From the NCBI RefSeq assembly GCF_058153355.1, contig NZ_CM177019.1: a stretch of 64,000 bases of DNA; one strand, written 5' to 3'. This document shows positions 58,915-59,379 of this stretch, piece after piece; the first letter of the stretch is position 1; every line of letters starts with the position of its first letter. The notes beneath the pieces were generated by a model. That model was given only the letters and a program-made list of their open reading frames with translations, ran no database searches and was not told where the DNA came from. Both the position numbers and the translations under genes were made by a program.

Positions 58915-59379
58915 ATGGTAAACAACTTCATATCTCTCCATTGCCTCTCACGAAAGGAACTGGACACACTGATCGAGCACGAATTACAACTGATGCTGGC
59001 TGAAGGCTTTGACAAGTCCCCTATTTCCGCCAAGGCCCTGCATATTCGGCTCAAGGCAAAAGGTATCGTTAACGGTGGTTTAAGTACGCTGAGCAGCCTT
59101 GAGCGAAAACGCCTAATTGCTGCCTATGTTGATCAGCAACTTGGCCCGTTGAATCTACGCCCAAAAGAAAAACAGCAATACGTCAACCGCAAAACCCGTC
59201 AGGCCTTGCTGGCCAGAAACCAGCAGTTGCAGGCGGAAGTCAGTGAACTGTAAGACCAACTGGCGCAGAATACCCTATCGTTGATAGAAATTGTCAAAGC
59301 GGTAAAAATCAATACGGTTATTCCGGTGGAAAGTCTGTTGGCCAAACATGTAATTCGGGAGTTACACAAGTCGTCATAA
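58915..59379 (+). pseudogene. Hypothetical protein interrupted by an in-frame TAA at 59251; the frame continues 41 more codons
   Basis: 112-aa ORF ends ...QLQAEVSEL*, then the same frame reads DQLAQNTLSLIEIVKAVKINTVIPVESLLAKHVIRELHKSS*. Confidence 0.4.

Follow-up and report, generated by a model that had tools for sequence, protein, structure and literature searches.

An Interrupted Reading Frame Downstream of hipA as the Probable Remnant of the ginD-like Gene of a GInt-type Island

The Locus Downstream of hipA

The sequence analyzed here is a window of 64,000 nucleotides from contig NZ_CM177019.1 (NCBI RefSeq assembly GCF_058153355.1), and the feature under study is a reading frame on its plus strand at 58915-59379. 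The frame opens with an ATG at 58915, runs for 112 sense codons to a TAA at 59251-59253 and continues in the same phase for 41 more sense codons up to a second TAA at 59377-59379. Sequence and translation agree in this respect with the initial annotation, which had described a hypothetical gene with one in-frame TAA and 41 codons beyond it. To the left of the frame lie the last 177 bp of hipA (58626-58802, plus strand), identified by BLAST against the E. coli N96 locus and the annotation of that locus; the open reading frame at 58635-58802, which is this hipA end, finishes in LHRRLSREYGIK. A deletion whose junction lies at about 58626 has removed everything else of hipA, together with hipB and the 3' half of an autotransporter gene. 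The chromosomal spacer past hipA (58803-58906, plus strand) has TATGTTAAAT at its end, where the left junction of the island (attL side) lies. Homology to K-12 and other E. coli stops at 58906, and this is also the junction of the intact islands described below.

The next 47 bp (58907-58953, plus strand) provide a fortuitous in-frame ATG at 58915 and 13 replacement codons (MVNNFISLHCLSR). They are confined to decayed remnants; intact islands, K-12 and the remainder of the window contain nothing that matches them, and they may represent a variant island's left end. From 58954 to 59379 on the plus strand follows the body of a gene that is here called ginD-like, extending from codon 4 to the natural stop of a 144-aa gene and 94-99% identical to the intact E. 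coli copies. Absent from the window are the three recombinase genes of the intact islands, codons 1-3 of the ginD-like gene, its native start and a TGATG overlap with the preceding gene. No sigma-70-like promoter was found upstream of the frame on the plus strand, and a Rfam scan of 58400-59900 returned nothing. Since the native start, the operon and the TGATG overlap are absent, the gene is already a 5'-truncated orphan remnant.

Cargo survives in pieces to the right of the natural stop. The first cargo gene, encoding an MbcA/ParS/Xre-type antitoxin, is represented by a 3' fragment on the minus strand (59494-59624); homology to the compared island loci L002 and L003 ends at 59624, and PF09722 is matched by the intact copy. 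It is followed by a fragment of a gene for a 186-aa hypothetical cargo protein (59624-60211, plus strand, 83-86% identity), which includes the open reading frame at 59690-60037, and by the gene for a 400-aa leucine-rich-repeat (LRR) protein on the minus strand (60610-61812) with Pfam LRR_4/LRR_1 matches. This LRR protein shares 85% identity with an E. coli protein of 508 aa whose N- and C-termini are the same and whose repeats are more numerous; the RefSeq name of the latter is 'NEL-type E3 ubiquitin ligase domain-containing', and Pfam finds only LRR in the 400-aa protein of the window. A gene for an ankyrin-repeat protein follows from about 62400. The LRR and ankyrin cargo is effector-like rather than defence-related. 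Compared with intact islands, the cargo order has changed: at 59624 the antitoxin gene breaks off and continues into the middle of the 186-aa hypothetical gene, and of the HTH gene that usually separates the two, a 178-bp segment lies 2.4 kb beyond, at 62057-62234.

The chromosome to the left is rearranged as well. The gene of the ECSE_1600-family autotransporter (56839-58627) contains a direct tandem duplication of 521 bp, a length not divisible by three, in which 57230-57750 is repeated at 57751-58271. Two short-read assemblies of related strains have a single 521-bp copy, which may be due to assembly collapse. The duplication is followed by a deletion of about 4.4 kb, which has taken away hipB, the larger part of hipA and the autotransporter gene's 3' half. 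Among 5,426 complete E. coli genomes, the best match to the core genes at 36000-58600 (the lsr operon and its neighbours) reaches only about 96.4% identity; for the island remnant, identity to E. coli copies is 99.2-99.4%. A divergent Escherichia lineage is the probable source of the window, and the island region may have been exchanged by recombination.

The Premature Stop Codon

At position 59251 the window has T where every relative has C, as seen in the base-by-base alignment and its difference table. The three closest relatives examined, E. coli 2013C-4282, N96 and 24A16CRGN010 (99.2-99.4% identical), have CAA in the stop column, and the premature TAA at 59251-59253 on the plus strand differs from these by a C-to-T change; the intact genes of E. 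coli 214-4, Z0117EC0040 and LD93-1 have CGA there. Across genera the column is occupied by R, N, E, H or K in the protein alignment. Past the stop, the frame of the window matches the intact 144-aa genes codon for codon in both the base-by-base and the protein alignments, and its openness there is no accident. The alignment to orthologs that the initial annotation proposed therefore gives a sense residue in every ortholog and a conserved 41-residue tail, bearing out its suggestion of a recent nonsense mutation; no ortholog ends at the same TAA and the downstream frame is not devoid of conservation, the two outcomes that would have spoken against it.

An exact-sequence look-up in Logan found the 112-aa product in four public assemblies built from independent read sets (SRR8656992, SRR28786219, SRR31441161 and ERR10468270). 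In each, the 464-473 bp of the remnant that align agree with the window completely (100% identity), and for one of these four TAA-carrying assemblies the identity is 100% across 4,012 bp. The stop allele is carried by none of the complete E. coli RefSeq genomes, and an exact-pattern scan of species-representative genomes found neither allele. Because the same 112-aa product recurs in four independent assemblies, the stop is a real nonsense mutation, specific to a lineage in which the TAA is a genuine allele.

The Gene Family and Its Predicted Structure

DNA similar to the gene is present in only about 215 of the 5,426 complete E. coli genomes. The homologs that were aligned (n = 20, 140-148 aa, from at least eight genera) all read through the stop column and have a conserved C-terminus. 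The hosts of the homologs include E. coli, Serratia, Pectobacterium, Dickeya, Providencia, Klebsiella, Cronobacter, Erwinia, Aeromonas, Proteus and Acinetobacter. In the tail past the stop column, N119 and I126 are invariant in the protein alignment and several other positions are nearly so.

The intact 144-aa protein was modelled with AlphaFold2 from a 46-sequence alignment, giving a mean pLDDT of 89.2. The model shows a compact, helical N-terminal portion (residues 3-80), then a helix of 39 residues (85-123) and one last helix at 128-143. The coiled-coil-like sequence that had been noticed on both sides of the stop fits the helix 85-123, with the stop falling in mid-helix at residue 103. According to the model, a stop at residue 103 would halve the long helix and delete the conserved C-terminal helix, and the 41 codons stranded past it (59254-59376, plus strand) correspond to the second half of the long helix together with the C-terminal helix. 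The region lost has been described in the literature as a helix-loop-helix or a coiled coil (PMC5385486, PMC10214605).

Scans of the intact 144-aa protein against Pfam, NCBIfam and PHROGs returned sub-threshold coiled-coil noise only, and Foldseek of the AlphaFold2 model against the PDB gave nothing better than E = 3. A profile search of 1.84 billion representative proteins yielded 103 clusters, whose distant members are unnamed and provide no link by name to the Pseudomonas GinD; a second, word-indexed profile search listed close relatives only. The family is known in RefSeq only as 'hypothetical protein'.

Intact Islands and Their Relationship to GInts

Genomic islands of the GInt type are defined by a ginABCD operon at the 5' end of the island (PMC5385486), and in Pseudomonas GInts all four gin genes were shown to be essential for excision and integration (PMC5385486). 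GinC is described as being without the catalytic motif and GinD as having a C-terminal coiled coil (PMC10214605). Other published features are the small size of GinD and its lack of recognised domains, cargo that begins at the ginD stop, and short imperfect flanking repeats (PMC5385486, PMC10214605).

In intact E. coli islands at the same site, the gene order is hipB-hipA, a module of four genes (integrases of 466 and 516 aa, a 788-aa hypothetical protein and the 144-aa gene) and then the cargo, so that three recombinase-type genes and a small fourth gene occupy the island 5' end. The four module genes overlap at their ends, and the 144-aa gene overlaps the stop of the third gene (TGATG). Both integrases match the Pfam Phage_integrase family, one above the curated cut-off and one just below it. 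The third product, the 788-aa protein, is recombinase-like and degenerate; it is annotated as hypothetical, and Pfam detects in it nothing but a trace of Phage_integrase (E = 0.24). Islands that differ in their cargo remain collinear as far as the TAA at 59377-59379, and their sequences part directly after it. The insertion is flanked by imperfect direct repeats of 10-11 nt and its empty site can be identified: in 214-4 and Z0117EC0040, TATGTTAAAT forms the left island junction and TAAGTTAAAT the right one, and the exact empty site is found in K-12, where TATGTTAAAT is followed without interruption by CATGTCTGAG. The intact islands are about 27.0 kb long in 214-4 and 21.2 kb in Z0117EC0040, and carry an MbcA/ParS/Xre-type antitoxin, an HTH protein, type I restriction-modification genes, AAA ATPases and IS elements.

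The module is homologous gene by gene to a four-gene module on the Pseudomonas aeruginosa plasmid p3860P. The three large proteins match with E values of 3e-23, 5e-27 and 1e-29, the last for the 788-aa protein against the 630-aa third protein of the p3860P module, and the fourth gene matches an unannotated 132-aa open reading frame of p3860P over its full length (hhalign probability 85.6%, E 5.6e-6); the p3860P module is not named GInt in its record, and the link to the prototype Pseudomonas GinD runs through p3860P together with the published surveys. Among the entries listed of the published GinC/GinD table, the E. coli accessions of the present family do not appear. GInts have been found most often in Pectobacterium (39.5% of replicons) and Aeromonas (12.5%), and in 7.5% of Escherichia replicons (PMC10214605), and the published host range agrees with the list of homolog hosts given above. 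The interval between hipA and ydeT has been reported as E. coli defence-island hotspot #20, with 'GInt' as its occupant in strains H3 and S43 (PMC10121019). Taken from these sequence comparisons, the interrupted frame is very probably the remnant of the fourth, ginD-like gene of a GInt-type island that entered the chromosome in a site-specific manner just downstream of hipA. As the window keeps only the fourth gene of the module, it contains a remnant and not a functional GInt.

Comparison with Known Systems

The ginD-like gene resembles the GinD described by Bardaji et al. (2017, PMC5385486) in encoding a small protein (132-148 aa) directly after three tyrosine-recombinase-type genes at the island 5' end, in having cargo from its stop codon onwards, and in a product with no Pfam domain and a helical or coiled-coil C-terminus; the flanking imperfect repeats of about 10 nt are likewise those of GInt islands. 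The copy in the window, however, has lost ginABC and codons 1-3, and its codon 113 is a stop. The hipA/ydeT hotspot #20 (Hochhauser et al. 2023, PMC10121019) is the same chromosomal interval. The published tables for this hotspot contain GInts with CBASS cargo (PMC10121019), and the intact islands studied here carry type I restriction-modification and other defence-like cargo, whereas the island in the window is decayed, with an antitoxin fragment, LRR and ankyrin-repeat cargo and no recognisable defence system.

Small auxiliary proteins that are predicted to form a coiled coil and are required together with large tyrosine recombinases are also known from integrative elements of the strand-biased circularizing type (Srap) and from Tn554 (TnpC) (PMC10214605). 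The similarity between GinD and TnpC was stated as 'not shown' (PMC5385486). Their organization is different: Srap elements are arranged as intA-tfp-intB-srap with the non-catalytic protein in second place, whereas in the E. coli islands the degenerate protein is third, after two integrases, and in Tn554 this third protein is absent. The K-12 pseudogene yneL (b1506) shares with the frame only its nature as a pseudogene and its location in the interval from hipA to the fimbrial operon; it is a fragment of an HTH-protein gene on the chromosomal side of the attachment site and has no sequence similarity to the frame.

Alternative Explanations

The single-base difference from the closest E. coli copies, and the lack of the stop in any complete E. 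coli RefSeq genome, would also be expected if the TAA were a sequencing or assembly error in an open frame of 154 codons, as the initial annotation allowed. This is very unlikely in view of the four independent assemblies that encode exactly the same 112-aa product, and the native start and the operon would be missing even if the stop were removed. The same annotation raised a possible identity with yneL, since both genes lie after hipA. Orthology with yneL can practically be dismissed: BLAST finds no similarity between the window and the 467-bp stretch of K-12 in which yneL lies, and in genomes with intact islands yneL is found beyond the right-hand junction, adjoining fimA and 21-27 kb from the ginD-like gene. 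The yneL-like HTH pseudogene of these genomes lies outside the right junction, and yneL belongs to the chromosomal flank. When the whole K-12 hipA-ydeT interval was compared by BLAST, it matched the window only up to 58906, with the yneL segment unmatched, and the identity was rejected.

Other readings accept the stop and give the gene a function. The 112-aa N-terminal fragment might still be made and kept for a purpose of its own, for example DNA binding by its helical N-terminal domain; it retains the best-conserved N-terminal two thirds of the family, and the allele is common to several isolates. Neither a promoter-like site nor the native start is present, the partner genes are missing, and the frameshift and truncation elsewhere in the gene in sister lineages form a pattern of neutral decay, all of which leaves only a slight chance for a retained function. 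A more specific proposal is that the fragment is expressed by read-through from the hipA side and, acting as a dominant-negative 'immunity' factor, binds either incoming GInt recombinases or the attachment site. If true, the fragment would block re-occupation of the hipA hotspot, and the proposal is rated highly improbable. Finally, the open and conserved frame past the stop might point to programmed read-through or recoding of the stop, with a full-length protein as the outcome. Homologs have ordinary sense codons at this column, however, no RNA family or structure signal was found by Rfam in 58400-59900, and a TAA followed by G is an efficient terminator in enterobacteria; programmed read-through is accordingly given almost no credence. 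The frame past the stop is better regarded as still open because the mutation is young.

Sister Remnants and the Course of Decay

The decayed ginD-like gene of the window has sister remnants in other E. coli, with lesions of their own. All 17 of the complete E. coli genomes with a full-length remnant align as 593 bp against the 594 bp of the window, and for three of them a base-by-base alignment identifies the G at 59340 as the one that is absent; RefSeq labels these 1-bp-deleted copies 'frameshifted'. Strain 2020CK-00188 has a 3' truncation, with everything past 59176 lost. Independent lesions at different places in sister remnants give a pattern of neutral decay.

The decay of the copy in the window may be reconstructed as follows. 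An internal deletion would have removed ginA, ginB, ginC and the first three codons of ginD, leaving an orphan with neither its native start nor a recognisable promoter. With its partners gone and selection relaxed, the orphan would then have gained the single C-to-T change from CAA to TAA at codon 113. That the deletion came first and the stop later is an inferred order, and the remnant is presumably not expressed. The biochemical role of the intact 144-aa protein would likewise be assigned by analogy with GinD. The kind of element is already known, and what has happened to it is ordinary pseudogene decay.

A further copy of the TAA remnant is found at locus L014 (ERR10468270, 1-3456), where it lies not beside hipA but beside genes with Cap4-nuclease, CTD1, MComp1 and SMC/AAA domains, and where the DNA downstream of the remnant jumps to the equivalent of window position 62057. 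This locus is either another rearrangement of the same locus or a chimeric contig.

Conclusions

The appropriate annotation for the frame at 58915-59379 is a pseudogene, the ginD-like remnant of a GInt island; neither 'hypothetical gene' nor yneL is a suitable label. Since the RefSeq name of the family is only 'hypothetical protein', naming the family would improve the annotation of enterobacterial GInt islands. The finding has little importance beyond annotation. For the biology of these islands, the locus provides a clear example of decay in place, in which the recombinase genes appear to have been lost first and the orphaned accessory gene was then hit separately in different lineages.
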